In this document: piece after piece, positions 23,566-41,899 of the stretch
Layout of the letters: each line of letters starts with the position of its first letter
How positions within the stretch are numbered: position 1 is the first letter of the stretch
Source: Escherichia phage TL-2011b
Length of the DNA stretch: 44,784 nt
Strand: one strand, 5' to 3'
Sequence record: JQ011317
Translations under genes and position numbers: made by a program
The notes under the pieces: generated by a model
The model's input: only the letters and a program-made list of their open reading frames with translations
Told to the model about the DNA's origin: nothing
The model's database searches: none

Positions 23566-24110
23566 TGTGCGATCCGGTTATTGCTGGTGGCGCAATGCTC
23601 GCCATGAGTGGCATTCAGGCATACACCCAGTACCAACAGGGAAAATATGCCTCGAAGGTTGCAGAAGCGAACGCAGATATAGCCACTGCTCAGGCAAATG
23701 ATGCAATAAACAGGGGTAACGCTGAAGCTGAGCAACGGCGCAGAGAGACCCGACAGCGGCTTGGTACACAGGCGGCGACAATGGGGGCGACCGGCGCTGA
23801 TTTATCTACCGGTAATGCGCTGGATATATTTGGCGACGCTGCCCAGTTTGGCGCTCTTGATTCTCTGACGACGGTGAATAACGCGCAACGCGAGGCTTAC
23901 GGTTATCAGGTTCAGGCTGCCAACTATAAAGCAGAAGCCAGTTCAGCCCGTAAACAGGGGAATGTGGGAGCAGCAACAACATTGCTCACTGCGCCTCTGA
24001 AGGCATACGGTGCGTACCAGATGTTTGGTGGGACGTGGAGTCCGTTTACTCAAAGCACCCCTGCGCCAATCGGGGCAGCAGCAGGAACCAGATTACCCGG
24101 AGGATTATAA
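23565..24110 (+). CDS. Internal virion protein (gp14 position)
   Basis: 181-aa Ala/Gly/Gln-rich ORF. Confidence 0.4.
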   Translation: MCDPVIAGGAMLAMSGIQAYTQYQQGKYASKVAEANADIATAQANDAINRGNAEAEQRRRETRQRLGTQAATMGATGADLSTGNALDIFGDAAQFGALDSLTTVNNAQREAYGYQVQAANYKAEASSARKQGNVGAATTLLTAPLKAYGAYQMFGGTWSPFTQSTPAPIGAAAGTRLPGGL

Positions 24111-26827
24111 TGCCAGTCGTACCAACAGTATCAGGACGTCAGGTTGAGAGTCGTGGTGTACAAACCGGTGGTTTTCAGACCTTCGATGTTCCTCAAGCAG
24201 GTCAGGTGCTGGCGAATGTCGCAGATCAGTATGCGGTGGCATATGGTGAAGCCAGGCAGAAAGCGAATGTTGCATTGTCTCAGGATGCCATCCTTCAGCT
24301 TAATCAGCGCAGCAATGAACGTCTTTATAACCCTCAAACCGGTTTTTATGCACAACAAGGCAAAAATGCGATTGGTAAGGGGCAAGAGTACATATCTGGA
24401 TTTGATCAGGATGTGGAAGAAATAGCTGCTTCATTGACTGATGAAGCAGCAAGAAATATGTTTTTGCAACAAGCCAGAACACAGAAAATTCAGTTCAGTA
24501 CTGGAGTTCTCAGACATGAGATAGGGCAGACAAATGCCTATGAAGATGAGCAATATCAGGCAACGAGAAAATTATGGATACAAAATGAAGCGGATGCCTG
24601 GAATGACCCGCAAACTGCCACTTTAGCCAGAAATTCCAGAATGGTAGCCATTGCCAGATATGGAGCTGCCAGGGGATGGTCACAAGAACGCATTCTGGAA
24701 GAAATAGAAAGTGATGATCGCAGTGCCACAGAAATGCGGGCGAAGAATTATGCCGCTGCCAATCCAGAAGGATGGCTAAATGGTCTGTTTCAGAAAAATG
24801 ATTCTGGAGGCATGGACATGCGTGCCATACGCCTTGTTGAATCAGGTGATCGACATTTTAATCCTGATGGTAGTCTTCTTGAGGGACCGATAACATCTTC
24901 TGGAGAGAGAGCGCAGGGGAAATACCAGTTAATGCCGGGCACAGGAAAAGAACTGGCGGCCAAGCGTGGCGTTGAATACAACCCTACTGACGAACAACAG
25001 CATGAAATGCTCGCCAGTGACTATGTAAATCAACTGTATGGTAAGTACGGTTCCGAAATATTGACCGGAGCAGCATATAACTGGGGGATGGGTAACGTGG
25101 ATAAACTGATCGCCAAAGTCGGTGATCCACGTAAAGGTGAAATATCAGAAGAAGAATTTATCCGAAATCTTCCATCAGAAACACAAGGGTGGCTTTCCCG
25201 ATATAGAAAAAATAAAACTGGAATGGATCCGCTGACTATTTATCAAATAGATAACCTTGCTAATAGTCAGATAGAAAAGCAAAGGAAGTTAATATTAGAA
25301 CAGCTTGAGCCAGCTATTAATAACACCATGGCACAGCTATATAACGGTGAGGTTCCAGATTATATACCGGCTCAGGAGACCATCATCAGGGGGTATGGAA
25401 AAAACGCAGATAAAATAATCAATCAACTGGATATAGCGATTGATAACGCGAGAATATTCCAGGCAATTCAGTATTTGCCTCCTTCTCAGCAGCAAGAAGA
25501 AATGCAGAAAGTGAAGCCTGAGGTTAACGATCCTCACTATGCGTTAAAACTCGATGCTTACGGAAAATTGTCTGCATTGCTTCAGAGATCAAATGAAGCA
25601 ATTCAGGCGCAACGGGATTCACGCAGATTCAATGAGGCGCTGACAATAGGTGAAAAATTAGACCCAAGCAACAAGTCAATGCAGAAAGCTGCTGATTACA
25701 CAGAAATGGCGCAGAACTTTCGTATTAATGATGCCTCCACTCATGATGGGGTTGTTCGGCTTGTGGCTCAGACTGGCATAATGCCTTCGCAGGTCATCAC
25801 GCAGCTTTCAGCAGTATCCCGATCCAGCAATCAGGAAGTGGTTAAAAATGCGGCGGAACTGTTTAGTCGGTTATATGAAACAGACAATGCATCTATTGGA
25901 AATATGCCGAAGGATATGCAGGGTTTTTATCTGACTGTTAAGCAACTAACTGATTCTGGCATGTCTGCTGATGCGGCTATCGAGCAGGCGCAGAACCTTA
26001 CGTACAACCAGACCGATGCTCTTAAAGCTCAATTGGCATCAACGCAGAGTTCAAAAGAGTACAAAAATGATCGCAGCAAGGCGATGAATTCTGCTGTCAG
26101 CAATATGGCGCAGTGGTTCCGTTGGGATCCGTCTGCGGATGACCAGACGCCGGAAGCAGCTAGATTCCGTAATGACTATCAGACGCTGTATGACATTAAC
26201 TACCGCGTTGCTGGTGGTAACGCTGACGTAGCGAAGCAAATGACCAACCAGCAGATAGCCCGCACCTGGAGTATCAGCGAGGTTAACGGAGAAGCGCAGT
26301 TTATGAAATATGCACCGGAGGCGCTTTATCAATATGGGCCGTCAGGCTGGCAGGCGGCGCAGTGGAAAGCTGAAAAAGAACGGCTGATGTACGGTGAGCG
26401 CAAAGAGATTATAACAACCAGTCCGACGTTGCTTGGGATCACGTCAGGTAATGCTCCTGTAGTTGAGACAAAAACCCCTGAGAGTCGTATTAATGGAGAA
26501 TTATTCATAACCCCTGACGTGTTAACACCTCGTAATGGTGATTACGCCATTATGGTAAGAACTAAGGATGAAAATGGCATCGATCGGGTCCAGCCGTTTT
26601 ATAACAAACATGGGCGTCCTATGCGTTGGGAACCATCACTAGAAGATTGGGAACCTTATAAGAAAATGCAGCAGGAATGGGAGCAGTACGAGCAGGAAGA
26701 AATTATGCGTGGACAGGCTATACGAAACTTCAAAGACAAGCATCGCGCTCTGGATGAGCAGTATCAGCGCCTGCATAACGAACGTATGGACAAATTTAAA
26801 GATTACTTTTCGTGGGGATCTAAATAA
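24110..26827 (+). CDS. Internal virion/ejection protein with lytic transglycosylase (SLT) domain
   Basis: ATG at 24110 with GGAGGA Shine-Dalgarno (TAATG overlap); SLT-like motif RLVESG ... GKYQLMPGTG ... AAYNWGMGN. Confidence 0.7.
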   Translation: MPVVPTVSGRQVESRGVQTGGFQTFDVPQAGQVLANVADQYAVAYGEARQKANVALSQDAILQLNQRSNERLYNPQTGFYAQQGKNAIGKGQEYISGFDQDVEEIAASLTDEAARNMFLQQARTQKIQFSTGVLRHEIGQTNAYEDEQYQATRKLWIQNEADAWNDPQTATLARNSRMVAIARYGAARGWSQERILEEIESDDRSATEMRAKNYAAANPEGWLNGLFQKNDSGGMDMRAIRLVESGDRHFNPDGSLLEGPITSSGERAQGKYQLMPGTGKELAAKRGVEYNPTDEQQHEMLASDYVNQLYGKYGSEILTGAAYNWGMGNVDKLIAKVGDPRKGEISEEEFIRNLPSETQGWLSRYRKNKTGMDPLTIYQIDNLANSQIEKQRKLILEQLEPAINNTMAQLYNGEVPDYIPAQETIIRGYGKNADKIINQLDIAIDNARIFQAIQYLPPSQQQEEMQKVKPEVNDPHYALKLDAYGKLSALLQRSNEAIQAQRDSRRFNEALTIGEKLDPSNKSMQKAADYTEMAQNFRINDASTHDGVVRLVAQTGIMPSQVITQLSAVSRSSNQEVVKNAAELFSRLYETDNASIGNMPKDMQGFYLTVKQLTDSGMSADAAIEQAQNLTYNQTDALKAQLASTQSSKEYKNDRSKAMNSAVSNMAQWFRWDPSADDQTPEAARFRNDYQTLYDINYRVAGGNADVAKQMTNQQIARTWSISEVNGEAQFMKYAPEALYQYGPSGWQAAQWKAEKERLMYGERKEIITTSPTLLGITSGNAPVVETKTPESRINGELFITPDVLTPRNGDYAIMVRTKDENGIDRVQPFYNKHGRPMRWEPSLEDWEPYKKMQQEWEQYEQEEIMRGQAIRNFKDKHRALDEQYQRLHNERMDKFKDYFSWGSK

Positions 26828-29800
26828 TGCCAGTTTATGCACAAGCTGAAGATCTTAATAACGGACTGATCCCGTCAGGTAATGTTTTGCCGGAACAAAC
26901 TGGGTTTGATGTTGCCCTTCCGGAAGGGGCTAATCCTGAGCCATTGCCACCGGAGCCTTCCGTATGGGGGGCTGCAATGCGACAGAACAATATTCTGGCT
27001 GGTTTTTTCCGACCAGCCAGACAGTTTGAACCGGTCGAAGGTTATAACCCATATGCTGATAAAAATGAGTTGCACGGTTATGAATACTGGGGGGCGAAAT
27101 TTGCAGATTCCCGATCGCCAGAGGAAACGGCGTGGATTAAGCAGCAGATAGATGATGAAAATGAAGACAGACGTTTATTGTCTGATGCTGGCGTAGTTGG
27201 AACTCTTGCCAGTATTGCTGCGGGAATGGATCCGGTTACTGTTGCGTCAATGTTTATCCCCGGTGCTCAAGGAGGGGCACTGGCGCGTATTGGCTCACAG
27301 ATTGCGATTGGTGCTGCCGGTACAGCATTAAGCGAGGTTGTGCTGAATAATCAGCAAATAACACGCTCATGGGGTGAAAGTGCCGCTCACGTTGCAGCGG
27401 GTGCGATGATGAGCGGCGTGTTTGCCAGTGCTGGTGTTGCGCTTTCGCCATCCGTCCGGGCTGCAGCCACGCGTGAGGTTGCTGATGCTCTTGATAATAT
27501 GAGCATTACATCAGCGACTGACAGGGCTGCCGCTTCGCTTTCTGATGGTGGTAGTGTTGGTGCTATGAAAATTGATACAGCGACTCTGGATGATTTAACC
27601 CCTGTTTCCGGTGGGTGGGTTGGAAAGGCTGCATGGAAAGCAGGGAGCTATCTTACTCCTTTGACAAGGTTAATGGAGTCTCCGTCCAAGACAGTGCGAA
27701 AAACAACGCTGGAGTTAGCCGAAAATAATTTCACCCTTAAAGGAAATGAAAGGGGGATTGAAACACCGGTAGCTGTAGAAACCCGTACACGTGGATGGCG
27801 GCGTGAAGAAGCTGCTGTTGTTGTCGGAAATAAACAGGCATACGCAAAGTATAAAGCTGATGGTGGTGACATGAGTTTTGATTCATTTCGTCAGCAGGTT
27901 GGGAATGCTATGCGAAGCGGTGATGTGCATGCTAATCCTGTTGTTCAGGAAACGGCGCAGGCGATGCGAACTGTATTAAATCGGGTGAAGGTTGAAATGC
28001 AAAAGCTTGGTTTATTACCGCCAGATGAAGAACTGAAAGCATTAGGCCAGGCAAGCTATTTTCCACGTATATATAAAGTTGGAAAAATAATCAGTGAACG
28101 CGATAAATTTCGACGTATTTTGGTTGACTGGTGGTCGAGAGGAAATAAAACACTGGATCCTGAGGATGCTGAAATTGCAGCGGATATCGTAATTAATAAA
28201 ATTACTGGTGCTAAGGTTCCACAGGATTTTGTCAGCGTATTTTCTGTAAAAGCCGCAGGTAGTACGAAAGAAAGAACATTAAATGTGCCTGATAGTCTTA
28301 TCAGGGATTATCTTGAAAGTGATGTGAATTACGTGCTGCAACGTCATATCCGTGAAGCGGCAGCAGAAATTGAGTTGACGAGAACATTTGGCAAACGAAC
28401 TATGACTGAGCGTCTGCAATTAATTGAGGACGAATATGACAGTCTGTTACGGGAAGTGCCTGAAAAAATAAAGGCGAAATATGACGAAAGTGTGGCAAAT
28501 CTGAAAGCACGTTATGAGAGCAATGGTGAAGTTGTTCCTCAGGGTAAACTCGATTCATTAATGCGAAAGTACGAAAAGGAATTACGGAAAGAACAGTCCA
28601 GACTTTCAAAATCAAGAGCAAATGATCTCAGAGACATAACAGCATTACGCGATCGTCTTGTTGGTACATATGGTATGCCTGATGATCCGTCTTCGTTTTT
28701 TGTTCGTGCTGGCGCTTTTCTGCGGGATGTGAACTTCACGACCAAACTCGGTGGAATGACAGTATCAGCTATTCCAGATCTGGCCAGAGGGGTTATGGTT
28801 AATGGTTTCCGTAACACCATGAAAGGCTATGCTTCTCAGATATCCCAATCACCGGCATTTAAGGCCAGCAAAGAAGAGATGTTGAAGATGGGGATTGGAT
28901 TGGAAGCTGTACTACATTCACGTTCTCGTGCAATTGGTGATCTTGTTGACAGTTCTTCCAGGACAACAGCAGTCGAAGCAGGAATGGAGCGAATTACTGA
29001 TGCCTTCGGCAAGCTGACACTCATGGATCGATTTAATGACATAAACAAATCCATGAACGGAATGCTCACGTCAGACGGTATTTTGTCTGGTGCGTTTTCT
29101 GCACGTCGCATGGCAAAACTCGGTATCAACGACAATATGGCTGCGCGTATTCGCAGTGAGTTCGAGAAACATGGTGAGGTAATTGATGGATGGCACATTG
29201 GTAACTTTGATAAATGGGACGATCAGTACGTTGCCGGAGTATTCCAGTCAGCGGTTCTGAAAGACGTTAATAACACTATCATCACCCCCGGTATTGGTGA
29301 CACACCTTTATGGGCGAGTACTCCAATGGGGCGAACGATATTTCAGTTTAAATCATTCACAACGGCTTCATACAACCGTGTGCTACTTGGTGGGTTACAG
29401 GAAGGAACTGCGCAATTTTATTATGGCACTGCATTTCAGATTGCTCTTGGCTCACTGGTCTATGCGCTAAAAGAAGCATCGAAAGGGAAAAATGTTGACT
29501 GGTCACCAGAGAAGCTGGTGCTTGAGGGTATAGATAGATCCGGTATTCTTGGGCCATTGATGGAATATAACAACATGGCTGAAAAGGCTACTGGTGGTGC
29601 TGTTGGGCTGGGGGCTTTATTTGGCACTGGCACACAGTCTAGGTATGCCAGTCGTGGATTCGTAGGATCTCTATTCGGACCGTCATTTGGTCTTGCGGAT
29701 AGCATCATTGATGTGACCGCAGGAGTGTTGAATGGTGATGCCGGTGATCGTATTGTGCATAATGTCCGAACCCTGATACCCGGCAATAACCTGTTCTGGA

Positions 29801-29841
29801 TTGCGCCACTAATAAACCAGGTGGATCCGGTGATGCGGTGA
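26827..29841 (+). CDS. Large internal virion/ejection protein (gp16 position)
   Basis: 1004-aa ORF coupled to the SLT protein gene. Confidence 0.5.
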   Translation: MPVYAQAEDLNNGLIPSGNVLPEQTGFDVALPEGANPEPLPPEPSVWGAAMRQNNILAGFFRPARQFEPVEGYNPYADKNELHGYEYWGAKFADSRSPEETAWIKQQIDDENEDRRLLSDAGVVGTLASIAAGMDPVTVASMFIPGAQGGALARIGSQIAIGAAGTALSEVVLNNQQITRSWGESAAHVAAGAMMSGVFASAGVALSPSVRAAATREVADALDNMSITSATDRAAASLSDGGSVGAMKIDTATLDDLTPVSGGWVGKAAWKAGSYLTPLTRLMESPSKTVRKTTLELAENNFTLKGNERGIETPVAVETRTRGWRREEAAVVVGNKQAYAKYKADGGDMSFDSFRQQVGNAMRSGDVHANPVVQETAQAMRTVLNRVKVEMQKLGLLPPDEELKALGQASYFPRIYKVGKIISERDKFRRILVDWWSRGNKTLDPEDAEIAADIVINKITGAKVPQDFVSVFSVKAAGSTKERTLNVPDSLIRDYLESDVNYVLQRHIREAAAEIELTRTFGKRTMTERLQLIEDEYDSLLREVPEKIKAKYDESVANLKARYESNGEVVPQGKLDSLMRKYEKELRKEQSRLSKSRANDLRDITALRDRLVGTYGMPDDPSSFFVRAGAFLRDVNFTTKLGGMTVSAIPDLARGVMVNGFRNTMKGYASQISQSPAFKASKEEMLKMGIGLEAVLHSRSRAIGDLVDSSSRTTAVEAGMERITDAFGKLTLMDRFNDINKSMNGMLTSDGILSGAFSARRMAKLGINDNMAARIRSEFEKHGEVIDGWHIGNFDKWDDQYVAGVFQSAVLKDVNNTIITPGIGDTPLWASTPMGRTIFQFKSFTTASYNRVLLGGLQEGTAQFYYGTAFQIALGSLVYALKEASKGKNVDWSPEKLVLEGIDRSGILGPLMEYNNMAEKATGGAVGLGALFGTGTQSRYASRGFVGSLFGPSFGLADSIIDVTAGVLNGDAGDRIVHNVRTLIPGNNLFWIAPLINQVDPVMR

Positions 29842-29852
29842 GTTAAACACCT

Positions 29853-30416
29853 TTAGCATGATTCAGGGGAAACCCCAATATTAAATATGAGTGACTCCCC
29901 TGAATCAGCATAATAATGTAATATTATTGACTTACGTTGTTTTCTTGCTTCGTAGAATAAACGCTCTTGCGGCGATAATTTGTGAAAACTGCCGGATGCA
30001 CAATATATGTTTTTTAACTTTTCGCGGGTTTCTTTTATTGTATCTTCTGATATGTATTTTAGGTATTTATCCGTATAGATGTTGCTACTATAAGAAATTA
30101 ATGTTTTGCTGTTGTTGTGATGTATTGTATTTTTATCGTTGAAGTCTGTATTTTTATTTACTGTCATTAGGTTTTTAATGATTACATGTAATACAATAGT
30201 CTCCCCATCATCAATTCCATATTTGATGTCATAGTCAGTATATTTATTTGTTATACCGCTTCCTGATAGCGGCACTATGTACTCTGAGAAAAATGAGTTT
30301 GCCGCGTGACCATCAAGAGCAATAGCAGTTTTTTTGTGGTAAAAATAAAACAATATTGAGAGAGTCAAAATAATAGCGACGCCTAATGCAACCTTTAATA
30401 TAGATATGGTTTTCAA
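29853..30416 (-). CDS. Membrane-anchored protein, low GC; candidate superinfection-exclusion protein
   Basis: TTG start at 30416 with AAGGAG Shine-Dalgarno (alternative ATG 30443); N-terminal TM helix; same strand and position as sieA next to mnt in P22. Confidence 0.45.
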   Translation of the reverse strand: MKTISILKVALGVAIILTLSILFYFYHKKTAIALDGHAANSFFSEYIVPLSGSGITNKYTDYDIKYGIDDGETIVLHVIIKNLMTVNKNTDFNDKNTIHHNNSKTLISYSSNIYTDKYLKYISEDTIKETREKLKNIYCASGSFHKLSPQERLFYEARKQRKSIILHYYADSGESLIFNIGVSPESC

Positions 30417-30506
30417 AATATCGCTCCTTGTTGTAACATACATCAGTAATGTGGCGTTTTTCAATTGTATTAAAGACGTGTAATATGTACACGCCTTTTG
30501 TTCTTC

Positions 30507-30939
30507 CTATTCAGGTATTTCAATTCCAAAACCATCTGCATCCCATGAGTTTTCACAGATGATGTAACCTAGTTCATTGAGCTTATTAAATGTTTTTTCA
30601 AAGATGATCTGGTAATCATTATCTGCAAGTGATTCCAGTTCAAGGTCATTAAGGTTTATATAAAAACTTGTATGTCCAAGTGTTATTTTCTTATTAATTT
30701 CATTAAAGGTTCTTTTGAAAATAATATTTGATATTTCATGTCGTGCATTGTTTGCAATAATTTTTGCTTCATAAGCAGAAATTACGTCATCTTCATGAAT
30801 ATCTTTCAGAAAGCTGGTGTCAAGACGTTGTACTATTTCAGCGTTCATTGATCGCTTATTGGCTTTTGCAGAAATTTCTATTTTTTCTTTTACTTCAACG
30901 GGAAGTCTGATCCCTTAGTTGTGGATCTTCTCTGCTCAT
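30507..30939 (-). pseudogene. Mnt-like ribbon-helix-helix repressor gene with apparent +1 frameshift
   Basis: ATG at 30939 encodes MSREDPQL then stops; the downstream frame continues GIRLPVEVKEKIEISAKANKRSMNAEIVQRL, matching P22 Mnt (MARDDPHFNFRMPMEVREKLKFRAEANGRSMNSELLQIV); one extra base near 30915. Confidence 0.55.
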
Positions 30940-30995: not shown

Positions 30996-31044
30996 TTGAC
31001 ATCAATGACGCACGGTGTGACAATTATTTTGCCCCACGGTGGGG
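30996..31044 (+). promoter_or_regulatory. Pant-like promoter with Omnt-like palindrome
   Basis: -35 TTGACA (30996-31001), 17-bp spacer, -10 GACAAT (31019-31024); palindrome CCCCACGGTGGGG at 31032-31044 (core CCACGGTGG as in P22 Omnt). Confidence 0.55.
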
Positions 31045-31059
31045 CTAAGGAGATATGAA

Positions 31060-31227
31060 ATGCAAAAAGCAAAAGAGATGTGTCAACGACGAGTTCGTTT
31101 TCCGGACGATGTGAAGTTAGCTATTGAAAGAAATGGCGAAAAAGAATGCCGAAAGTTCAATACAGAGATTATCTATCAGCTGAGGAAAGTGTATGGACTC
31201 ACTGGTGAGAAGAATAGCGTGGCATAA
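31060..31227 (+). CDS. Arc-like ribbon-helix-helix repressor (55 aa)
   Basis: ATG at 31060 with AAGGAG Shine-Dalgarno; RVRFPDDVKLAIERNGE ... NTEIIYQL resembles P22 Arc. Confidence 0.55.
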   Translation: MQKAKEMCQRRVRFPDDVKLAIERNGEKECRKFNTEIIYQLRKVYGLTGEKNSVA

Positions 31228-31237
31228 AACAGCGAAG

Positions 31238-31250
31238 CCCCACGGTGGCC
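31238..31250. promoter_or_regulatory. Second Omnt-like palindrome between the arc-like and ant genes
   Basis: CCCCACGGTGGCC with core CCACGGTGG; flanked by inverted repeat GAAGCCC / GGGCTTC. Confidence 0.45.
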
Positions 31251-31299
31251 AGACCGTCAGGGCTTCAGTATCGTAAAACTACGTATAGGAATTAACGAC

Positions 31300-32244
31300 A
31301 TGACGAGTATAGCAACAGCGGTATCTACTATCAACGTGCCATTCCACGGCGCAGAGCTTTATGTTGTCAATCATAACGGCGAACCATACACCCCAATGAA
31401 ACCAGTCGTTGAAGGTATGGGGCTGGACTGGAAAACGCAGTTCCGCAAGTTGCAACAACGCTTTAAGAGCTGCATGGTCGAAATGACCATTCAGCTCCCC
31501 GGTGATACTCAGCGTCGTCTGGTTATCTGTCTTGCTTTACGCAAACTTGCAGGTTGGCTGCAAACCATCAGCCCTAACAAAGTCCGCCCTGAAATCCGCG
31601 ACAAGGTAATCCAGTATCAGGAAGAGTGTGACGATGTGCTCTACGAGTACTGGACTAAAGGCCATGTGGTTAACCCACGCAAAGCTAAAAAGGCGTTGCC
31701 GGGTAAAATAACAACTGAACAGCAGGAAGCCATTAAACAACTCGTCATGAGTCGCGGTCAGTCTCTGCCAAAAGAAAAACAGGCTAAGGCGATGATCACC
31801 ATGTGGTCGTCACTGAAATCTCATTTTGGCTGTTCGTACAAAGAAATTGGTGAAGATCAATTTGCCGAAGCGTTGTCTCTTGTTGCTCGGGTTCCGCTTG
31901 AAGGGGAGTATCTCCCTGCTGGATCTGCATCAGAGAATGATGAAGTGGCAGTCAAGATGTTAGATGCGCTTCGTGAGGCAATTAAAACACAGACAAAATG
32001 TTATGGTTATCCATTGAAGCCCGGCTACCGCAGTCTGATTCATTCTCCGTCTGGTGTTCTCGGTCTGACGGAGAACTCACTGCTGATGAATCTGCTGAAC
32101 CAGTTACAGGAAGACGGGCACGATGTATCGGGCGCGGCGGCGGAGCTGACCACCATGTTCTGTTACATCGTTGGTGTGAGCAAATGCCTGCGTGATATCC
32201 AGACGCACGCGGAGTACATCAACGACAAGGCAGGGTTCTTCTGA
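31300..32244 (+). CDS. Anti-repressor (Ant) family protein 1
   Basis: 314 aa; N-terminal antirepressor-type domain (INVPFHGAELYVVNHNGEPY); C-terminal 77 aa identical to the second Ant protein. Confidence 0.65.
   Translation: MTSIATAVSTINVPFHGAELYVVNHNGEPYTPMKPVVEGMGLDWKTQFRKLQQRFKSCMVEMTIQLPGDTQRRLVICLALRKLAGWLQTISPNKVRPEIRDKVIQYQEECDDVLYEYWTKGHVVNPRKAKKALPGKITTEQQEAIKQLVMSRGQSLPKEKQAKAMITMWSSLKSHFGCSYKEIGEDQFAEALSLVARVPLEGEYLPAGSASENDEVAVKMLDALREAIKTQTKCYGYPLKPGYRSLIHSPSGVLGLTENSLLMNLLNQLQEDGHDVSGAAAELTTMFCYIVGVSKCLRDIQTHAEYINDKAGFF
32008..32244. repeat. Inverted repeat arm A (3' end of ant1)
   Basis: Reverse complement is about 97% identical to 33420-33656 (3 mismatches in the first 84 bp compared by hand). 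Confidence 0.7.
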
Positions 32245-32281
32245 CGGGCGGCGGCACAGGGATGTGCAAAACGAAACTATC

Positions 32282-32293
32282 GTGACATGTCAC
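32282..32293. repeat. Perfect 12-bp palindrome GTGACATGTCAC (copy 2)
   Basis: Identical to 11500-11511; 14-bp extended versions are reverse complements of each other. Confidence 0.6.
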
Positions 32294-32294
32294 A

Positions 32295-32320
32295 GGCCGC
32301 TTTCGCGGCCTTGTTCTTTT
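32295..32320 (+). terminator. Rho-independent terminator after ant1
   Basis: Stem GGCCGC / GCGGCC, loop TTTC, then TTGTTCTTTT. Confidence 0.65.
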
Positions 32321-32480
32321 AACGAATGCCACCGCCGCCCGGGCGGGAATCCGCAGAACGCCCACCGCAGCGGGAGCCGTCAGCGGCAGTATCGCTGTCG
32401 TGCTGACAACGACCGGCAAAGGCCTGAGTTGAAGCTACCAGAGACAACAAAACGAACAGTGCAGCAAATGCTTTTTTCAT
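32319..32480 (-). CDS. Small secreted peptide (53-aa precursor), Gly/Cys-rich
   Basis: Textbook Sec signal peptide MKKAFAALFVLLSLVASTQAFA; predicted mature 31-aa peptide with two Cys. Confidence 0.45.
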   Translation of the reverse strand: MKKAFAALFVLLSLVASTQAFAGRCQHDSDTAADGSRCGGRSADSRPGGGGIR

Positions 32481-32550
32481 TGTGAAATTTCCATCTATAA
32501 GCCACCTCAATGTGGCGTCAATGAGTGTAGCACTGACTTTTGTTTCGTCC

Positions 32551-32574
32551 ACAAAAAAGCCCGCGCTGCGGGCT
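32551..32574 (-). terminator. Terminator of the minus-strand two-gene operon
   Basis: Stem AGCCCGC / GCGGGCT with plus-strand A-run (U-run on the minus transcript); overlaps the stop codon. Confidence 0.55.
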
Positions 32575-33118
32575 ATTCCTTCCATTTATCAGAAAAAAGA
32601 TCTTCTTCTAAAGGCATTGGTTCTGTTTTTGTTTTCTCAAAGAATTGATAACTGATAGTGATTGCTTCCTCTTTAAACTCTTCTTGCTCAGTTATGTTGT
32701 GAGCATCTGCGTCAACAAAAAACATAACCAGCGCATCACGATTGTGATTTACCGAATAAACTAAAAAGCAATCACTTGTTGGTATGCATTTTACTTGTAC
32801 AGACGCTATATTTTTCCATGCATCCCAAGATGATTTTTTACCAGTGTGTTTTTTATCACTATCTTCTGGAATATAGTCTTGGTTATCGACATGAGTATGC
32901 CTGACATTTAGTTTAAGCATTTCTGTCGGACGAGCAAATGCAGCATCTTTACCAAGAGATGGATGGTATCCCGTTTTCCAATACTGGGTAAAGGCATCAG
33001 ATACTTTCTTCAGCTCAAGATCAGATGCACAAAGGGCCGAGAAATTTTGCGTATGCAACACTCGACCCTTATATCTGACAACTTGATTTTTATCATTCTG
33101 CGACGCAGACGAACTCAT
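32573..33118 (-). CDS. Putative toxin, YafO-like (181 aa)
   Basis: ATG at 33118; blocks LGKDAAF, LNVRHTHVDN, CFLVYSVNH resemble YafO toxins as recalled; overlaps a small upstream ORF by 26 nt. Confidence 0.4.
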   Translation of the reverse strand: MSSSASQNDKNQVVRYKGRVLHTQNFSALCASDLELKKVSDAFTQYWKTGYHPSLGKDAAFARPTEMLKLNVRHTHVDNQDYIPEDSDKKHTGKKSSWDAWKNIASVQVKCIPTSDCFLVYSVNHNRDALVMFFVDADAHNITEQEEFKEEAITISYQFFEKTKTEPMPLEEDLFSDKWKE

Positions 33119-33272
33119 AATTTTCCTTATTGTTACGAGAATCAAAGAAAGCGCGGGATACGCGACTTGCGTGATCTTTTGTCATAGTAACTTTTACGTA
33201 CTCTACGCTTCCATTGAAAGAACGTCTTGCGGCAGCTTGCGCTCTACGCATCTGCAATTTTTCGTTTCGCAT
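33093..33272 (-). CDS. Small basic protein (59 aa), putative antitoxin/regulator
   Basis: ATG at 33272 with GAGGT Shine-Dalgarno 6 nt upstream; below the ORF-track cutoff; TTACC-N5-GGTAA site 61 bp upstream. Confidence 0.4.
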   Translation of the reverse strand: MRNEKLQMRRAQAAARRSFNGSVEYVKVTMTKDHASRVSRAFFDSRNNKENYEFVCVAE

Positions 33273-33332
33273 GACATTACCTCATATCTCATAAGTTCAT
33301 TACACGGATTAATAAAAATGAAACCAATCCGT

Positions 33333-33347
33333 TTACCCTTGAGGTAA
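33333..33347. promoter_or_regulatory. TTACC-N5-GGTAA site in the promoter of the toxin-antitoxin-like operon
   Basis: TTACCCTTGAGGTAA. Confidence 0.45.
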
Positions 33348-33419
33348 TAGTACGCTATTCACCCACAGTCTGCAATCTGTACAGAATTATTTAAAGGCAC
33401 ATCCCTGTGCCGCCGCCCG

Positions 33420-33656
33420 TCAGAAGAACCCTGCTTTGTCGTTGATGTACTCCGCGTGCGTCTGGATATCACGCAGGCATTTGCTCACACCGACGATGTA
33501 GCAGAACATGGTGGTCAGCTCCGCCGCCGCGCCCGATACGTCGTGCCCGTCTTCCTGTAACTGGTTCAGCAGATTCATCAGCAGTGAGTTCTCCGTCAGG
33601 CCGAGAACACCAGACGGCGAGTGAATCAGGCTGCGGTAGCCTGGCTTCAGCGGGGC
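33420..33656. repeat. Inverted repeat arm B (3' end of ant2)
   Basis: See arm A at 32008-32244. Confidence 0.7.
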
Positions 33657-34115
33657 GCTGTAGGTTTTGTTCTCTATCTTCATCGCCTGCATCACTGCTG
33701 ACGCCGTGGCGTTGGCTACCTGGTCGGCAACCATCTTTATGCGTTCTTCCTGCGGGAGCGAGTTTTTAATGTAACTTCCGGTGCGGCGGATCTGAGGAAG
33801 AACCTCACCTGTAACCCATTTACGAAAGCGGTAGGGGATAGTGCCTGGTGTCACCGCATCGCGGCAGCGGAGGATCAGTGTGTAGAGGCCTGACTCGGAG
33901 ATGATGATCGATTCTTGCTCACCGCCAGGGGTGTCGGTTGAAGCGACGCCCTTCTCATCATCATCAAGTTTTCGAACAGCATCTCGATGGTTTGCTATGC
34001 CTATAGCCCGACAAACATCTGAAGCGATAAACCATGGCTCACCATTAATGACGATTACCCGTATATCGGCTTGGGATTCGAAAGAAAAAATGGACGTGCT
34101 TTTTGTAGCTGTCAT
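33420..34115 (-). CDS. Anti-repressor (Ant/Bro-N) family protein 2
   Basis: 231 aa; Bro-N-like N-terminus (VIVINGEPWFIASDVCRAIGI); C-terminal 77 aa identical to ant1. Confidence 0.7.
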   Translation of the reverse strand: MTATKSTSIFSFESQADIRVIVINGEPWFIASDVCRAIGIANHRDAVRKLDDDEKGVASTDTPGGEQESIIISESGLYTLILRCRDAVTPGTIPYRFRKWVTGEVLPQIRRTGSYIKNSLPQEERIKMVADQVANATASAVMQAMKIENKTYSAPLKPGYRSLIHSPSGVLGLTENSLLMNLLNQLQEDGHDVSGAAAELTTMFCYIVGVSKCLRDIQTHAEYINDKAGFF

Positions 34116-34384
34116 AGTGGTTACCTTTTAGTCTGGTTAATCACCACTACCGACGCCAATCGGTTGGTGGTGAACTGTGCAGGGTTGGCGTAACCGGCTA
34201 AAAGGACCCGGCGCACCTTTCGGTGCCCCCACACAGCCCACCATAATACGAATGTGGCCGTGCTATACGCATAAAAAAACCGCTTGCGCGGTGAATGCGC
34301 CTTTTAGTAATCCGGGACGCCAATCCCGGCACTGGATTTTTCCAGTGCCCGATTACTATGGCACAAGAGGAGTGCGATGTAAAT

Positions 34385-34492
34385 TTACCGCAAAGGTAAT
34401 GATAAGCGCGGGGATATATAAAAATCAACCGTATTTGGTTGGTGGCGTTTAACGCTTGATCACCTGAAAGCAAGATATTACCTTTAAGGTAA
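34385..34492. promoter_or_regulatory. Two TTACC-N5-GGTAA sites in the 400-bp noncoding region upstream of ant2 and the zinc-ribbon membrane protein gene
   Basis: TTACCGCAAAGGTAA (34385-34399) and TTACCTTTAAGGTAA (34478-34492). Confidence 0.45.
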
Positions 34493-34512
34493 TGTTATTG
34501 TGAGGAAAAGCA

Positions 34513-35241
34513 ATGGAAGTTTTCTGGATAGTTGTTGGTGTGGTTGCGGTGATTATTTACGTTATCAACCAGAACAAGACTAAGATCTCTGATCGTACGG
34601 TCGTTAATCATAACAAAACGATAAAGACCGAAGATGGGGAGATAACGATTAATCGTACACAGGTGATAGAACACACCTCTACTCAGTTTCAAAAAACTGG
34701 AGGTAATGCGCCTAATATTTCCGCACCTCCTGCTTATGATAGTGCGGTAATCCAGACATATTATAAACAGCAGGAGTTAGCAAAAGAGAGGCAACTGATT
34801 CAGCCAAAGCCATTTACAGCAGAGCTTCCACCTGGAGTGTCAACGCGTCCGGCATATCATGGAAGATTCCCTGGTGATGACGTATCGTCTCAGTCACCTA
34901 AAAAAGCACCTCAGGCAGTATCAGAGCCAGCAAGAATACCTTCTGTATCGCCGTCAAAAGAAGAATCAGCTAACGAAGTTTCAAGTGCCCGCAAGCAGTG
35001 TTTGCGATGCAGAATAAACCTTCCATATGAAAAATTCAGGAAATCGTCAAAAAATCCAGATGGATTGACTAAGTGGTGTGCAAGGTGTCTCGATGGCCCA
35101 AAGAATACACGTCATATGAAGTGGTGCCCAATTTGTAATGTCCGCAGAAAACGAACCAGCTTTTACCCTAATAATCAAAATGCGGATGGCTTAATGGCAT
35201 GGTGCAAAACGTGCTGGGACGAGCACAAAGCGAAACGATAG
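34513..35241 (+). CDS. Membrane-anchored protein with two C-terminal Cys4 zinc-ribbon repeats
   Basis: N-terminal TM helix, Pro/Ser-rich linker, two repeats of C-x2-C ... DGL-x3-WC-x2-C. Confidence 0.5.
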   Translation: MEVFWIVVGVVAVIIYVINQNKTKISDRTVVNHNKTIKTEDGEITINRTQVIEHTSTQFQKTGGNAPNISAPPAYDSAVIQTYYKQQELAKERQLIQPKPFTAELPPGVSTRPAYHGRFPGDDVSSQSPKKAPQAVSEPARIPSVSPSKEESANEVSSARKQCLRCRINLPYEKFRKSSKNPDGLTKWCARCLDGPKNTRHMKWCPICNVRRKRTSFYPNNQNADGLMAWCKTCWDEHKAKR

Positions 35242-35715: not shown

Positions 35716-37809
35716 ATGACGGTCTCAACCGAAGTTGACCACAACGAATACACCGGTAACGGTGTTACAACGACATTCCCTTATACCTTCAGGATTTTCC
35801 AGAAATCTGATTTAGTAGTGCAGGTTGTTGACCTGAACGAGAACATCACAGAGCTGATTCTTGACACTGATTACATAGTTACTGGGGCTGGAGGATACAA
35901 TGGTGGCAATATAATTCTGTCGAAGGCATTGGTTAGCGGTTATCTGATTTCTATATCACGAGAGCTCCCGGTTACGCAGGAAACTGATTTGCGTAATCAG
36001 GGTAAGTTCTTTGCAGAAGTGCATGAGGATGCTTTTGATAAGCTAACGATGCTGATCCAGCAGGTTCGAAGTTGGTTTAGCTTGGCGCTGCGTAAGCCGT
36101 CATTCGTGGCAAATTATTATGATGCGCTTAACAATTACATCAGAAACTTACGCGATCCTTCAACCCCCCAAGATGCAGCCACTAAAAATTATGTTGATAC
36201 ACAGCTCAGTTCTAACCTGGGGTGTACTTTGCGCGTTCAGGAGCAGATACCGCAACTTCCTGATGCTGCCTCCCGCGCAAACAAGATGCCTGCTTTCGAT
36301 AACGATGGTAACCCTATTGTTGTGCTTCCTCCATCAGGGTCTGCGTCTGACGTATTGATCGAGCTAGCCAAGCCAACTGGATCTGACTTGGTTGGTTATG
36401 GGTCACAGACGGTTAAAGCAACCCTTGATAGCCTGAATAGCATGCGGGAGGAGCTTCTTGATAAAACAGGATTTAATGCGCTGGGGCGCTTCCTTAATCT
36501 TTCAGAGCTTCGCTCCTGTGTTCCGGAGGAGGCAGGGCAGATTGTATACGTAGCATCAGCAGCTAGCACTACACATGCTGAAAACCACCTTGGTGGCGGC
36601 TTTTTCGAGTCTGTTGATAACATTCAGGCGTGGGCTGATGATGGTGGAATTGTAATCAAGCCAGAAACTGGAACGATGGTATGGAGACGAATTAATTTTA
36701 CCACTTACGACATGCAATTTTGGGGGGTGAAACCTGACGGAGTCACAGATAACGCAACAGCTATAACTCTTGCAACTAACTTTGCTCGCTCAAACAAATG
36801 CATTCTAGAGGCTCCTGCTGGAAACATAAATACATCAAAAACAATCCCAATTTATGACAATATGGGAATTAGAGGACAGGGAAAGGCTGAAGCGACAGTT
36901 TTTTATAAAACAACAAATGACAAAATAGATCTCACAAAAAATGGAGAAGTAATTCTTCAGGTGGATGCATTATGTGCTTTTATACCAAAGCAATGGGATC
37001 TAACAGATAACTCAATTAGTTCATTTTGTGTTAACGGTAGAGTTGAAAACTGCATGTTTAGAAGGCTTGGCTTAACACAAGAAAATGTAGATTCTTATAG
37101 AAATTATTACGGACTGTTTTTAGGAAAATCAGCAGCACCAGTTATCAGACAGTCAATTTTTGAATGTGCTTATATCGGATGCTTCTCTTATGTGCCGTTC
37201 TCTGGCGTAATGGAAATGGTCGGTTTCCCACAATATCCAGGGAAAGGATATGCTGGAGTTTTGTTTGAAGATTTTAGGGATGGTCAAATAAAAGTAATTG
37301 GCACTTCTATGGATATGCGCCTTGTTCAAGTTAATGGTTACCAGTTGTCATTTAGAATGTCCGGGATGCAATATACTACCATGACCAATTGTACAGCTGA
37401 AAACTGCACGCCAATGGATGGGGAATCAACTTGCTACGCATTTGATTTTGTAAATCCGTATTGCATTGTCATGAATACTTGTGCAACAGAATTTGTTAAA
37501 GGGGGGCAATTGCGTGTTAGCGTTCAGGGAAACCCATCATTCCGCCCATCTATTATTGTCAATGGCTTTCTACCAATTGACCAACAAAGTCCAGTAGTGC
37601 AAACACCTATAATTGATATTGACAATGGTGGTGTTGTTGAAATGAGTGTCATATTGAATGGTGGTGATTGGGCAATAAATCCATCGGCTGTAAATTTAAC
37701 TTCTCCAAAAGCAAGTGGTAATGGGTTGAAGGTAAGATTGATCGGTGTAAATGGCTCTCCTTCTTCGGTGTGGAGTGCGTCTTCTGGTGCAGAAGTAAGG
37801 GAGTTCTAA
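35716..37809 (+). CDS. Tailspike / tail fiber protein
   Basis: 697 aa; N-terminal virion-attachment-type domain followed by a long beta-rich C-terminal region; GGAGA Shine-Dalgarno. Confidence 0.65.
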   Translation: MTVSTEVDHNEYTGNGVTTTFPYTFRIFQKSDLVVQVVDLNENITELILDTDYIVTGAGGYNGGNIILSKALVSGYLISISRELPVTQETDLRNQGKFFAEVHEDAFDKLTMLIQQVRSWFSLALRKPSFVANYYDALNNYIRNLRDPSTPQDAATKNYVDTQLSSNLGCTLRVQEQIPQLPDAASRANKMPAFDNDGNPIVVLPPSGSASDVLIELAKPTGSDLVGYGSQTVKATLDSLNSMREELLDKTGFNALGRFLNLSELRSCVPEEAGQIVYVASAASTTHAENHLGGGFFESVDNIQAWADDGGIVIKPETGTMVWRRINFTTYDMQFWGVKPDGVTDNATAITLATNFARSNKCILEAPAGNINTSKTIPIYDNMGIRGQGKAEATVFYKTTNDKIDLTKNGEVILQVDALCAFIPKQWDLTDNSISSFCVNGRVENCMFRRLGLTQENVDSYRNYYGLFLGKSAAPVIRQSIFECAYIGCFSYVPFSGVMEMVGFPQYPGKGYAGVLFEDFRDGQIKVIGTSMDMRLVQVNGYQLSFRMSGMQYTTMTNCTAENCTPMDGESTCYAFDFVNPYCIVMNTCATEFVKGGQLRVSVQGNPSFRPSIIVNGFLPIDQQSPVVQTPIIDIDNGGVVEMSVILNGGDWAINPSAVNLTSPKASGNGLKVRLIGVNGSPSSVWSASSGAEVREF

Positions 37810-37879: not shown

Positions 37880-38986
37880 ATGAATAATAAAGGTAATATA
37901 ATTCAAAGTCTTACATCGTTGAGAATGTTTGCCGCTCTTGGTGTTTTTGTTAGTCACCTTGGGCTATTGTCTCAATCATCAATTGGTGTGTTTAATGCTG
38001 CGGCAAAGTATTTTTTTAATGGTTACATAGGTGTGACATTTTTCTACATTCTTTCTGGTTTTATTATAAACTATAGTTTCATAAATCATGTAGAAAAAGA
38101 AGCATTCAGCAATAAAGATTTTATTGTGTACAGAATAGCAAGAATATTTCCTGTGCATATTGTAGCTCTTCTTTGCTTTATTTTAATATTTATGCATGGT
38201 AAGATGGGTGATGGTATTAGTAAGGAAATGCTTATTTCAAATGTGTTTCTGGTGCAGTCATTCATCCCAATTCAGGATTATTATTTTTCTTTTAACTCCG
38301 TTTCATGGAGTATCTCATGTGAGATGTTTTTCTACGTTTCATTCTGCTTCTTAACAAGGCTAAAAACAAAATATTTAGTCTGTGTTCTGTTATTTGTTCT
38401 TGTGATTAATTTCTATTTCTTAATTAACCCGCCCATAACAATATCACAGCACTGGTTGTTTTATATAAACCCAGCATTTAGAATTGGTGATTTTATTATA
38501 GGGATGATGCTCTGTAGAGTATTTATTAATACTAGTGCAAGACCTAACAATACTGTTTGCAGTATCATTGAAATTGCATCAATATTGTCATTGCTTTTGA
38601 CAGTATATATAGCAACAAACTATATTACATATATGAATATAAAGTATGATGTTCTATATATTCCTTGCATGGCATTTATAGTTATTGCCTTTGCTTTTAA
38701 TGGTGGGATATTATCTAAAATTCTTAAAAATAGATTTATGGTTTTGCTTGGCGAGGCTTCTTTTTCATTTTATATGTTTCACTGGATGATTATTCAAATA
38801 GTAACAAAAATATTGAGCGTAGAAAAAGACAACTTTATCGATATGTTGGTGTATGTTGTTTTATCTTTGTTTGTTTCTATTATTGCATCAATACTATCAT
38901 TCAAGTTGATAGAAATGCCAATAAATAAAACAATAAGAAGATGTTGGAAAAAATATAGGGGGATGCAGTCTGTCAGGAGTGCATGA
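37880..38986 (+). CDS. Acyltransferase family 3 membrane protein (O-antigen O-acetyltransferase, serotype conversion)
   Basis: 368 aa, about 10 predicted TM helices, AT-rich; N-terminal R..AALGVFVSH pattern typical of acyltransferase-3 proteins. Confidence 0.75.
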   Translation: MNNKGNIIQSLTSLRMFAALGVFVSHLGLLSQSSIGVFNAAAKYFFNGYIGVTFFYILSGFIINYSFINHVEKEAFSNKDFIVYRIARIFPVHIVALLCFILIFMHGKMGDGISKEMLISNVFLVQSFIPIQDYYFSFNSVSWSISCEMFFYVSFCFLTRLKTKYLVCVLLFVLVINFYFLINPPITISQHWLFYINPAFRIGDFIIGMMLCRVFINTSARPNNTVCSIIEIASILSLLLTVYIATNYITYMNIKYDVLYIPCMAFIVIAFAFNGGILSKILKNRFMVLLGEASFSFYMFHWMIIQIVTKILSVEKDNFIDMLVYVVLSLFVSIIASILSFKLIEMPINKTIRRCWKKYRGMQSVRSA

Positions 38987-41359: not shown

Positions 41360-41899
41360 TTAATTAAACCAGCTGTCCGATTTGTTCTCTTCTGCTTTGC
41401 CCACGCTTTTCATCAGATCGCGACCGCCTTCAGTCATATTTCTGTTGGCGTCAGCTTCAGATTGCACCACATCGGTTTGCGCAGCTTTGTGCTTCAGTTC
41501 CTGATCGATAAATTCGTTTTCTCGCTTAACGCGGGCTTCTTCTTTCGCCAGCGCCAGTTTTTGTTTCTGAATCTCTAAGCTGCGTAGCTCATCTTCATAA
41601 CTTTGATCGCGTTTTTTGTCCGCAGAGGCTTCGGCGTCCAGTTTATCCTGACGAGCTTTCTTATTTGCTGCTGCCGTTGCCGCTCTTTTGTTAGCGGCGG
41701 CCTGGGCATTTGCGCGACGTTGCTTCTCTTGCTGGATTTCCCTGTTGCGCTCCGCGACCCATTCGTCATGCTGCCTTTGCTCTTCATTTTTACCTTGCTG
41801 TTCAGCTTCTGCTACAGCAGAGAGTTGATCCTGCAATGATGAGGCGATAGCCGGATAGCTTAAGGAGGCCAAGATGGCGCAAAGAAAAACTTTCTTCAT
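41360..41899 (-). CDS. yfgI: Host periplasmic coiled-coil protein, YfgI-like
   Basis: 179-aa ORF with signal peptide; size and gene order match yfgI-yfgH-yfgG-yfgF next to guaA as recalled for E. coli. Confidence 0.5.
   Translation of the reverse strand: MKKVFLCAILASLSYPAIASSLQDQLSAVAEAEQQGKNEEQRQHDEWVAERNREIQQEKQRRANAQAAANKRAATAAANKKARQDKLDAEASADKKRDQSYEDELRSLEIQKQKLALAKEEARVKRENEFIDQELKHKAAQTDVVQSEADANRNMTEGGRDLMKSVGKAEENKSDSWFN

Follow-up and report, generated by a model that had tools for sequence, protein, structure and literature searches.

A frame of 53 codons on the minus strand of the DNA of Escherichia phage TL-2011b (sequence record JQ011317) is, judged by its pattern of nucleotide conservation, a real protein-coding prophage gene under strong purifying selection. 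The best explanation of the locus is probably that a phiV10-like (Uetakevirus) prophage carries this gene as a self-contained moron cassette and that its product is exported. The open reading frame (ORF) lies within the window, which denotes here the whole stretch of 44,784 nucleotides that was analyzed, and it was found exactly where a preliminary description of this DNA had placed a 53-aa ORF: both the sequence and the ORF list give an ATG at position 32480 and a TAA stop codon at positions 32321-32319. Translation of the minus strand from 32480 to 32319 yields the 53 residues MKKAFAALFVLLSLVASTQAFAGRCQHDSDTAADGSRCGGRSADSRPGGGGIR. The small gene itself is already in the databases (as a hypothetical protein and as part of a PHROG family) and is thus not novel; the breadth, the architectures, and the extreme conservation of the domain family to which its product belongs appear to be undescribed, with no curated model or structure. 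The features of the gene, its cassette, and the surrounding prophage are collected in Table 1.

Table 1. Coordinates of the small gene, of its predicted expression signals, and of the prophage genes around it (positions refer to the window)
Feature	Position	Strand	Basis
Integrase	192-1439		
T7-type portal	15145-16824		
Tail and internal virion proteins	up to 29841		
P22-type ant gene, convergent with the small gene	31300-32244		
Whole mosaic cassette, ~294 bp (terminator, promoter, hairpin, ORF, terminator)	32281..32574	-	homology break-points, GC step
Perfect 12-bp palindrome GTGACATGTCAC, downstream edge of the cassette	32282..32293	.	sequence reading
GC-rich hairpin GGCCGC-GAAA-GCGGCC between the convergent ant and small gene	about 32294..32311	.	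terminator scan, + strand
Coding sequence (CDS) of the 53-aa pre-protein, stop codon included	32319..32480	-	ORF list, RefSeq, PHROG 14503, dN/dS, open frame
Predicted mature 31-aa peptide GRCQHDSDTAADGSRCGGRSADSRPGGGGIR	32322..32414	-	predicted cleavage site
Conserved domain core, residues 25-49, C-x4-D-x-A-x-D-G-S-R-C-G-x-R-x4-R-P-G-G	32334..32408	-	family alignments
Signal peptide, residues 1-22, MKK / AFAALFVLLSLVA / STQAFA	32415..32480	-	rule-based test, conserved site
Weak Shine-Dalgarno-like GGAAA, 7 nt 5' of the ATG	32488..32492	-	sequence reading; putative only
5'UTR stem-loop GCCAC-ATTGAG-GTGGC	32501..32516	-	covariation between genera
Predicted sigma-70 -10 hexamer TACACT	32524..32529	-	invariant alignment columns
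Weak -35-like TGGACG, 16-nt spacer	32546..32551	-	sequence reading; putative only
Intrinsic terminator that ends the YafO-like gene and marks the upstream edge of the cassette	32558..32574	-	terminator scan
Low-GC YafO-like toxin gene, upstream of the small gene	32573-33145		
Tailspike	35716-37809		
O-antigen acyltransferase	37880-38986		

Conservation of the reading frame in homologous regions had been named beforehand as the point on which the preliminary description could be refuted, and the frame turned out to be kept in every case. It is uninterrupted in 23 of 23 orthologues, which range from E. coli to the Rhizobiales, and it is the sole such frame of the six, each of the other five being broken by stops in 13-23 of the 23 orthologues. 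The codon positions and the dN/dS ratios were compared across 12 enterobacterial orthologues. Here, the variable positions in the mature part comprise 27 of 27 third codon positions, 11 first positions, and 9 second positions, and the Nei-Gojobori method, at almost saturated synonymous sites, gives a dN/dS of 0.068 in the mature part and of 0.127 in the signal peptide. The frame and the third-position pattern therefore indicate conservation at the level of the protein and not a constraint on the DNA or RNA.

The preliminary description had also considered a GC-rich antisense artefact, which is excluded because the conservation acts on the protein level. More generally, an untranslated frame that is open by chance in GC-rich DNA, as an antisense or terminator-associated artefact, might be suspected for an ORF that is short and GC-rich (58%), lies between two terminators, and is overlapped by a 97-aa ORF on the opposite strand. 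The probability of such a frame is nevertheless negligible, given that the sense frame alone is open in all 23 orthologues, that dN/dS stays at 0.07-0.13 despite saturated synonymous change, and that the protein is conserved across phyla at only 40-60% identity and in unrelated genomic contexts. An 88-aa ORF that starts from an ATG at 32585 and is favored by some gene callers was rejected, as its upstream extension lacks conservation; in Klebsiella, Tolumonas, and Methylobacterium, in-frame stops occur 2-6 codons 5' of the MKK start.

The same coding sequence is already annotated. RefSeq/PGAP lists the identical CDS as WP_000708858.1 ("hypothetical protein"), close variants of which are named "transmembrane anchored protein" in RefSeq, and the small protein matches PHROG 14503 ("membrane associated protein", moron category) over 53 of 53 positions with an E value of 2.3e-40 as well as PHROG 3117. 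Together with WP_332258524.1, these entries represent one protein family whose RefSeq CDSs are identical or near-identical to the small gene, and they carry no function, domain definition, or literature. Literature searches with the accession, with DGSRCG as a motif, and with the name of the product returned nothing relevant, and the small ORF is not discussed in the paper on vB_EcoP_ZX5.

The N-terminus of the small protein has the appearance of a classical signal peptide, as the preliminary description had claimed: residues 1-22 show all three regions and pass a rule-based test. The features expected of a substrate of Sec and signal peptidase I (SPase I) are present in the sequence, namely a charged n-region, an h-region, and small residues at -3 and -1. 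The hydrophobic core comprises ~13 uncharged residues (best 11-residue Kyte-Doolittle mean 2.9), and SPase I is predicted to cut after AFA22, where the c-region AFA followed by G obeys the -3/-1 rule. When a strict version of the rule-based test was applied to all ATG-started ORFs in the six frames of the 44.8-kb window, only two matches were obtained, the small ORF and a 179-aa DUF5384 protein, compared with a mean of 0.17 matches in mononucleotide-shuffled windows. Among 80 family members, M1, A22, and G23 are at least 90% conserved, and the sequence of the hydrophobic core drifts but stays hydrophobic across genera. A lipoprotein, which would be a substrate of SPase II, was considered and rejected: the cysteine is at +3 and not at +1 (...QAFAGRC...), and the -3 residue is not L, V, or I. 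An AG-x-C sequence is found at the predicted cleavage site in most relatives.

Cleavage at this site would release a mature peptide of 31 residues and ~3.0 kDa with 2 Cys and 8 Gly, in agreement with the earlier prediction. This part of the protein is hydrophilic, has a net charge of about +1, and contains no segment like the transmembrane anchor that the database name implies; the predicted signal peptide is the only hydrophobic segment of the protein. AlphaFold2 (AF2) models built from the 80-sequence alignment are of moderate confidence only (mean pLDDT 77, pTM 0.34-0.37). In the mature part, a beta-bridged turn around TAADGSR is followed by a short helical turn, and residues 2-20 are modeled as a single helix.

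The conservation of the mature part is concentrated in a core of 25 residues. In family alignments of 43 and 80 members, C25, A32, D34, G35, S36, C38, G39, R41, G48, and G49 are invariant, and conservation reaches at least 90% at D30, R37, R46, and P47. Past G49, the tail takes various forms (GGGIR, Q, K, N, D, and others). A conserved core preceded by a drifting hydrophobic stretch fits what one expects of a cleaved signal peptide plus a small folded domain. A scan with a degenerate pattern, using one genome per species, recovered 57 loci, all of them in diderm lineages. These include Enterobacterales, Tolumonas, Vibrio, and Rhodoferax, the Rhizobiales genera Mesorhizobium, Devosia, Rhizobium, Agrobacterium, Bradyrhizobium, Methylobacterium, and Microvirga, cyanobacteria (Dolichospermum, Anabaena, Nostoc, and others), as well as Bacteriovorax and a Polyangiaceae MAG. 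Homologues named by their source come from Escherichia, Shigella, Citrobacter, Klebsiella, Cronobacter, Franconibacter, Pectobacterium, Dickeya, and Salmonella. A family profile search gathered 626 clusters at 90% identity, and an exhaustive HMM search of 1.84 billion representatives gave 602 matches at E<=1e-3 (representatives at 50% identity).

The domain occurs in several architectures. Relatives of 220-300 aa consist of a signal peptide, the domain, the sequence RNPDTDW, a transmembrane (TM) helix, and a cytoplasmic region; in these membrane-anchored proteins the ectodomain is nearly invariant, and the cytoplasmic part is poorly conserved. In other long relatives the domain is C-terminal and preceded by Gly/Ser-rich linkers, further ones contain it in 2-3 tandem copies, and many family members are chromosomal and have no phage context. 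Scans of the small protein (Pfam E<=1), of 43 members (Pfam E<=10), and of the long and tandem relatives against Pfam, NCBIfam, and PADLOC gave no significant family. Weak matches to MarB, HxsA3, T4 Spackle, DUF6719, and KTSC were dismissed, as they are far below the cut-off and fall mostly in the signal peptide. Likewise, a profile search of the PDB gave no match at E<=10, and a Foldseek comparison of the full and mature AF2 models with the PDB gave no meaningful match (best E 6.3, a pectin methylesterase fragment). No conserved neighbor gene (modifying enzyme, immunity, receptor, or transporter) was found across the 57 loci, and nothing about neighbor genes could be learned from the loci in Mesorhizobium, Rhizobium, a marine metagenome, or a phage contig.

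From these data, a sequence of events can be proposed. A sigma-70 promoter belonging to the small gene would drive its transcription, including in the lysogen; Sec would export the pre-protein, and signal peptidase I would cleave it behind AFA22. In the periplasm, the invariant pair C25-C38 would then be oxidized, closing a 12-residue loop around the tight TAADGS turn. Export, cleavage, and disulfide formation are proposed here by reference to known Sec export, the specificity of LepB, and DsbA. We infer that the product may be a periplasmic effector, which is what the preliminary description had suggested as one option. It is possible, though doubtful, that the soluble product of 31 residues is a module that binds some conserved partner or ligand outside the cytoplasm of diderm bacteria. 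This reading is put forward because single-pass membrane proteins use the near-invariant module as their ectodomain and other relatives carry tandem copies of it, because the product is too small and too hydrophilic for an enzyme, a pore-former, or a membrane-active toxin, and because ten invariant positions persist across phyla. As no partner gene travels with the small gene, the target must already be present in diderm envelopes. Architecture and conservation thus suggest, with low confidence, a function as a binding module or decoy, in which the free phage copy would occupy or titrate the partner and would provide an accessory function of the lysogenic-conversion or exclusion type.

As a tentative proposal, the ORF may represent the free, phage-borne form of an undescribed domain of ~25 residues with a single disulfide, the soluble copy of which occupies a conserved periplasmic partner and thereby alters the envelope of the lysogen. 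On this view, the near-invariance of the domain would point to one such partner or ligand. If this is true, the occupied partner may change superinfection exclusion or envelope signaling in the lysogen. A domain of 25 residues that keeps ten invariant positions from enterobacterial phages to rhizobia and cyanobacteria very likely recognizes something universal in the periplasm, and finding the partner could uncover a novel interaction in the envelope as well as a new route by which prophages alter their hosts.

Other readings of the product have to be weighed against this proposal. The signal peptide could remain uncleaved and act as a signal-anchor, which would make the product a type II inner-membrane protein with its 31-residue domain displayed in the periplasm. 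The database names, "transmembrane anchored protein" at NCBI and "membrane associated protein" in PHROG, point in this direction, as does the single helix modeled for residues 2-20, and in the long relatives the domain is indeed membrane-tethered, albeit through a C-terminal TM helix. We consider this reading unlikely, since A22 and G23 of the canonical A-x-A|G site are each retained in at least 90% of the 80 members while the rest of the N-terminus drifts, and since a hydrophobic core of ~13 residues is short for a stable TM anchor. The database name is most simply explained as a transfer from the long, truly anchored relatives, which is probably how it arose. A further reading is that of a periplasmic inhibitor of a cell-wall-degrading enzyme, similar in action to T4 Spackle or to the Ivy/MliC/PliC lysozyme inhibitors, which would block the muralytic ejection proteins of superinfecting phages. 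The gene lies near, and on the strand opposite to, an internal virion operon with endolysin-type domains (PHROG 342, 1044), in a region where P22-like phages keep exclusion and immunity genes. The ejection proteins of this prophage are encoded at 24035-26827 and 26827-29841. Like the lysozyme inhibitors Ivy, MliC/PliC, and PliG, the product would be periplasmic, and its family is confined to diderm bacteria among the 57 loci. Moreover, Ivy acts via a short disulfide-closed loop, and such a loop is predicted in the periplasmic product, whose enterobacterial version starts with C-Q-H-D, presumably reminiscent of the CKPHDC loop of Ivy. However, the known inhibitors are folded proteins of 100-150 aa, and neither sequence, profile, nor fold comparison relates the small protein to them or to any other inhibitor family. 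Conservation of the H-D residues is limited to the Enterobacterales, and many members are chromosomal without phage context or form ectodomains of membrane proteins, all of which makes an inhibitor a decidedly unlikely reading.

Very unlikely, too, is a small metal (Ca2+) binding module comparable to Excalibur or to EF-hand-like DxDxDG loops, with a structural or ion-sensing role in the envelope. Excalibur (PF05901), the motif of which is DxDxDGxxCE, is likewise a small extracytoplasmic module with a Cys-bracketed loop of the form D-x-x-x-D-G-x-x-C, and the small protein has a D30...D34-G35-S36 turn bracketed by two Cys as well as, in enterobacterial members, an extra Asp (D28). On the other hand, the small protein reads D-T-A-A-D-G-S-R-C-G and lacks both the DxDxDG ligand pattern and the terminal Glu of Excalibur: the equivalent of the third ligand is an invariant Ala, the Glu is replaced by Gly, and a Pfam search of 43 members, relaxed to E<=10, yields neither Excalibur nor another Ca-binding model. 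It is thus not a member of that family. Finally, small size, a secretion signal, a phage-borne gene, and the proximity of antirepressor modules would be compatible with an exported toxin, a bacteriocin, a RiPP precursor, or an arbitrium-like phage communication peptide, and the C-terminus ...RPGG(x) loosely resembles AimP-type peptides. Such a peptide is highly improbable in view of the absence of a conserved immunity, modification, transporter, or receptor gene across the 57 loci and of the hydrophilic character of the mature part with its net charge of about +1. Furthermore, the whole 25-residue core and both Cys are conserved, and not merely a C-terminal hexapeptide, and the same domain is fused to membrane proteins.

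Within the window, the small gene is an ordinary accessory (moron) gene of a temperate phage, and its wider interest lies in the undescribed domain family. The window corresponds to a phiV10/epsilon15-like (Uetakevirus) prophage, in which the gene belongs to the accessory/immunity region that separates the tailspike from the end of the virion operon. The phages phiv142-3, HEMP4, EC.W1-9, and Klebsiella BUCT711 carry it at the same position, as do a Klebsiella ST512 prophage (ST512-KPC3phi13.3) and, as locus ETEC_RS14280, ETEC H10407, and its neighbors differ among phiv142-3, BUCT711, ST512-KPC3phi13.3, and H10407. At 80% or more of its length, the gene is present in 427 of 5426 complete E. coli genomes (about 8%), and 304 IMG/VR viral contigs carry it. 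Like the known prophage morons (lambda Bor and Lom, T5 Llp, phi80 Cor, and T4 Spackle), it is a short accessory gene between conserved modules, and it shares with them the general outline of an own promoter and terminator, an export signal, and an envelope role, all of which are predicted here. Unlike those exported morons, to which it has no sequence or fold relationship, its product is not a lipoprotein and is much smaller (31 aa when mature), and its family is also common outside phages.

The borders of the cassette are defined by comparison with other prophages. In 86 related prophage and phage loci, homology break-points cluster at 32272-32292 and 32557-32599, and the GC content, 59-63% across the ORF, drops to 34-39% in the YafO-like gene next to it; the clustered break-points and the GC step thus mark a discrete mosaic cassette. 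Flanking terminators, a predicted promoter, a discrete block between conserved genes, and a deviating GC content are all features of morons found here. The terminator at 32558-32574 consists of a 7-bp stem with 6 GC pairs followed by TTTTTT.

Expression of the small gene is predicted to start from the -10 hexamer TACACT, which is preceded by TGC and is thus extended -10-like. Its positions T1, A2, and T6 (TAnnnT) are invariant in 15 upstream regions from different genera. A consensus promoter scan did not call this promoter, because the -35 element is weak; in the Klebsiella loci, the -35-like sequence is TGGATG with a 17-nt spacer. Another candidate promoter, TTGACG-16-TATAGA, overlaps the hairpin and was rejected, since the T at -7 is missing and other genera do not conserve it. 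The 5'UTR stem-loop (32516-32501) begins seven bases after the -10 hexamer, and in 13 loci from different genera a GC-rich hairpin of 4-7 bp lies 3-7 nt past this hexamer. At least six distinct complementary stems were observed (CCAC/GTGG, CCGC/GCGG, CGTC/GATG, CGCC/GGCG, CTGC/GCAG, and TGCC/GGCA). Based on the position of the hairpin after the -10 hexamer and its covariation, the mRNA is therefore predicted to begin, at about position 32516-32517, with a 5'-terminal stem-loop, a type of structure that stabilizes bacterial mRNAs. An Rfam scan of positions 31000-34500 gave no RNA family over the small ORF or its leader. At the Shine-Dalgarno site, the orthologues carry GGTAAG, GGAAAG, or AAGGA.

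At the other end of the cassette, the preliminary description had let the ORF overlap the ant1 terminator. This holds for the stop codon, which lies within the T-tail, and not for the stem (32294-32311), which is clear of the ORF; the T-tail extends to about 32321, so that the stop codon is the only contact of the terminator with the small ORF. The hairpin is likely to serve as the terminator of both ant and the small gene. In the orthologues of Enterobacter, Franconibacter, and Tolumonas, a T-run follows the hairpin on the small gene's own strand, and the terminator is therefore regarded as a part of the cassette that is merely shared with ant in this prophage. The 12-bp palindrome next to it is conserved in Kluyvera, Klebsiella, and Buttiauxella loci and in the phages phiv142-3 and BUCT711.

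The mini-domain, the 25-residue core of the small gene's product (the 53-aa signal-peptide ORF), also occurs in metagenomic single-pass membrane proteins of 220-300 aa (P0159, P0165, P0166, P0181, P0189, P0195, P0196, P0199, P0202, P0214, and P0262; locus L066). In this set, the ectodomain, which hardly varies, consists of the mini-domain followed by RNPDTDW, and a GGNxYDAA motif is found in the cytoplasmic part. The cytoplasmic part has no Pfam match and thus represents a second uncharacterised family, which these anchored relatives link to the mini-domain family.

Two short elements in the cassette, the mosaic unit that carries the small gene, are conserved outside the window. The stem-loop in the 5'UTR of the small gene is preserved by compensatory stem changes in 13 loci from different genera, and the sequence on its 3' side (CUACACAUGGUAAG-like) is likewise conserved; the hairpin could be an mRNA stabiliser or a regulatory site. 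The palindrome at the cassette edge is kept in Kluyvera, Klebsiella, and Buttiauxella loci as well as in phages phiv142-3 and BUCT711; a protein might bind there, or it might be a site of recombination.

Features in and around the cassette and other genes of the window
Feature	Coordinates	Strand	Remarks
Accessory ORF	29853-30464	-	PHROG 8033; just past the virion operon
Accessory ORF	30507-30848	-	PHROG 1388; just past the virion operon
sar antisense RNA, P22-type	31231-31298	-	RF00262, 44.8 bits (Rfam scan)
ant gene, P22_AR_N domain	31300-32244	+	Adjoins sar RNA
Perfect 12-bp palindrome GTGACATGTCAC	32282-32293		Exactly on the cassette's downstream homology boundary
5'UTR stem-loop	32501-32516	-	Immediately 3' of the small gene's predicted -10
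190-aa ORF, YafO-toxin domain	32573-33145	-	PF13957, E 9e-6; PHROG 1651
Bro-N antirepressor	33420-34115	-	C4/isrK/a1/b1 module upstream of gene
C4 antisense RNA, P1/P7-type	34163-34361	-	RF01695, 77.7 bits; with isrK (RF01394) and a1/b1 target
242-aa ORF	34513-35241	+	PHROG 6762; between C4/Bro-N module and tailspike
179-aa DUF5384 protein	41360-41899	-	E 7.5e-62; downstream of O-antigen acyltransferase (37880-38986)

The small gene is flanked by two antirepressor control modules of different type, and the C-terminal ~85 aa of the P22_AR_N and Bro-N antirepressor proteins are nearly identical. Upstream of the small gene lies the YafO-like ORF, which has a low GC content (34-39%) and is named type II toxin-antitoxin YafO family toxin by RefSeq in related prophages. 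No antitoxin gene was recognised among the genes adjacent to it, and related phages carry other genes in its place.

Further ORFs are found elsewhere in the window. The PHROG 8033 ORF has a weak match to the TIR-like ThsB (E 0.006, PADLOC), a possible hint of a prophage-borne defence gene. Over its last ~45 residues, the 242-aa ORF resembles endonuclease VII, HNH, and Lar-like proteins in their zinc-finger region. Finally, when all ATG-started ORFs in the six frames of the window were scanned with the strict signal-peptide rule, the DUF5384 protein was the one ORF besides the small gene that passed.
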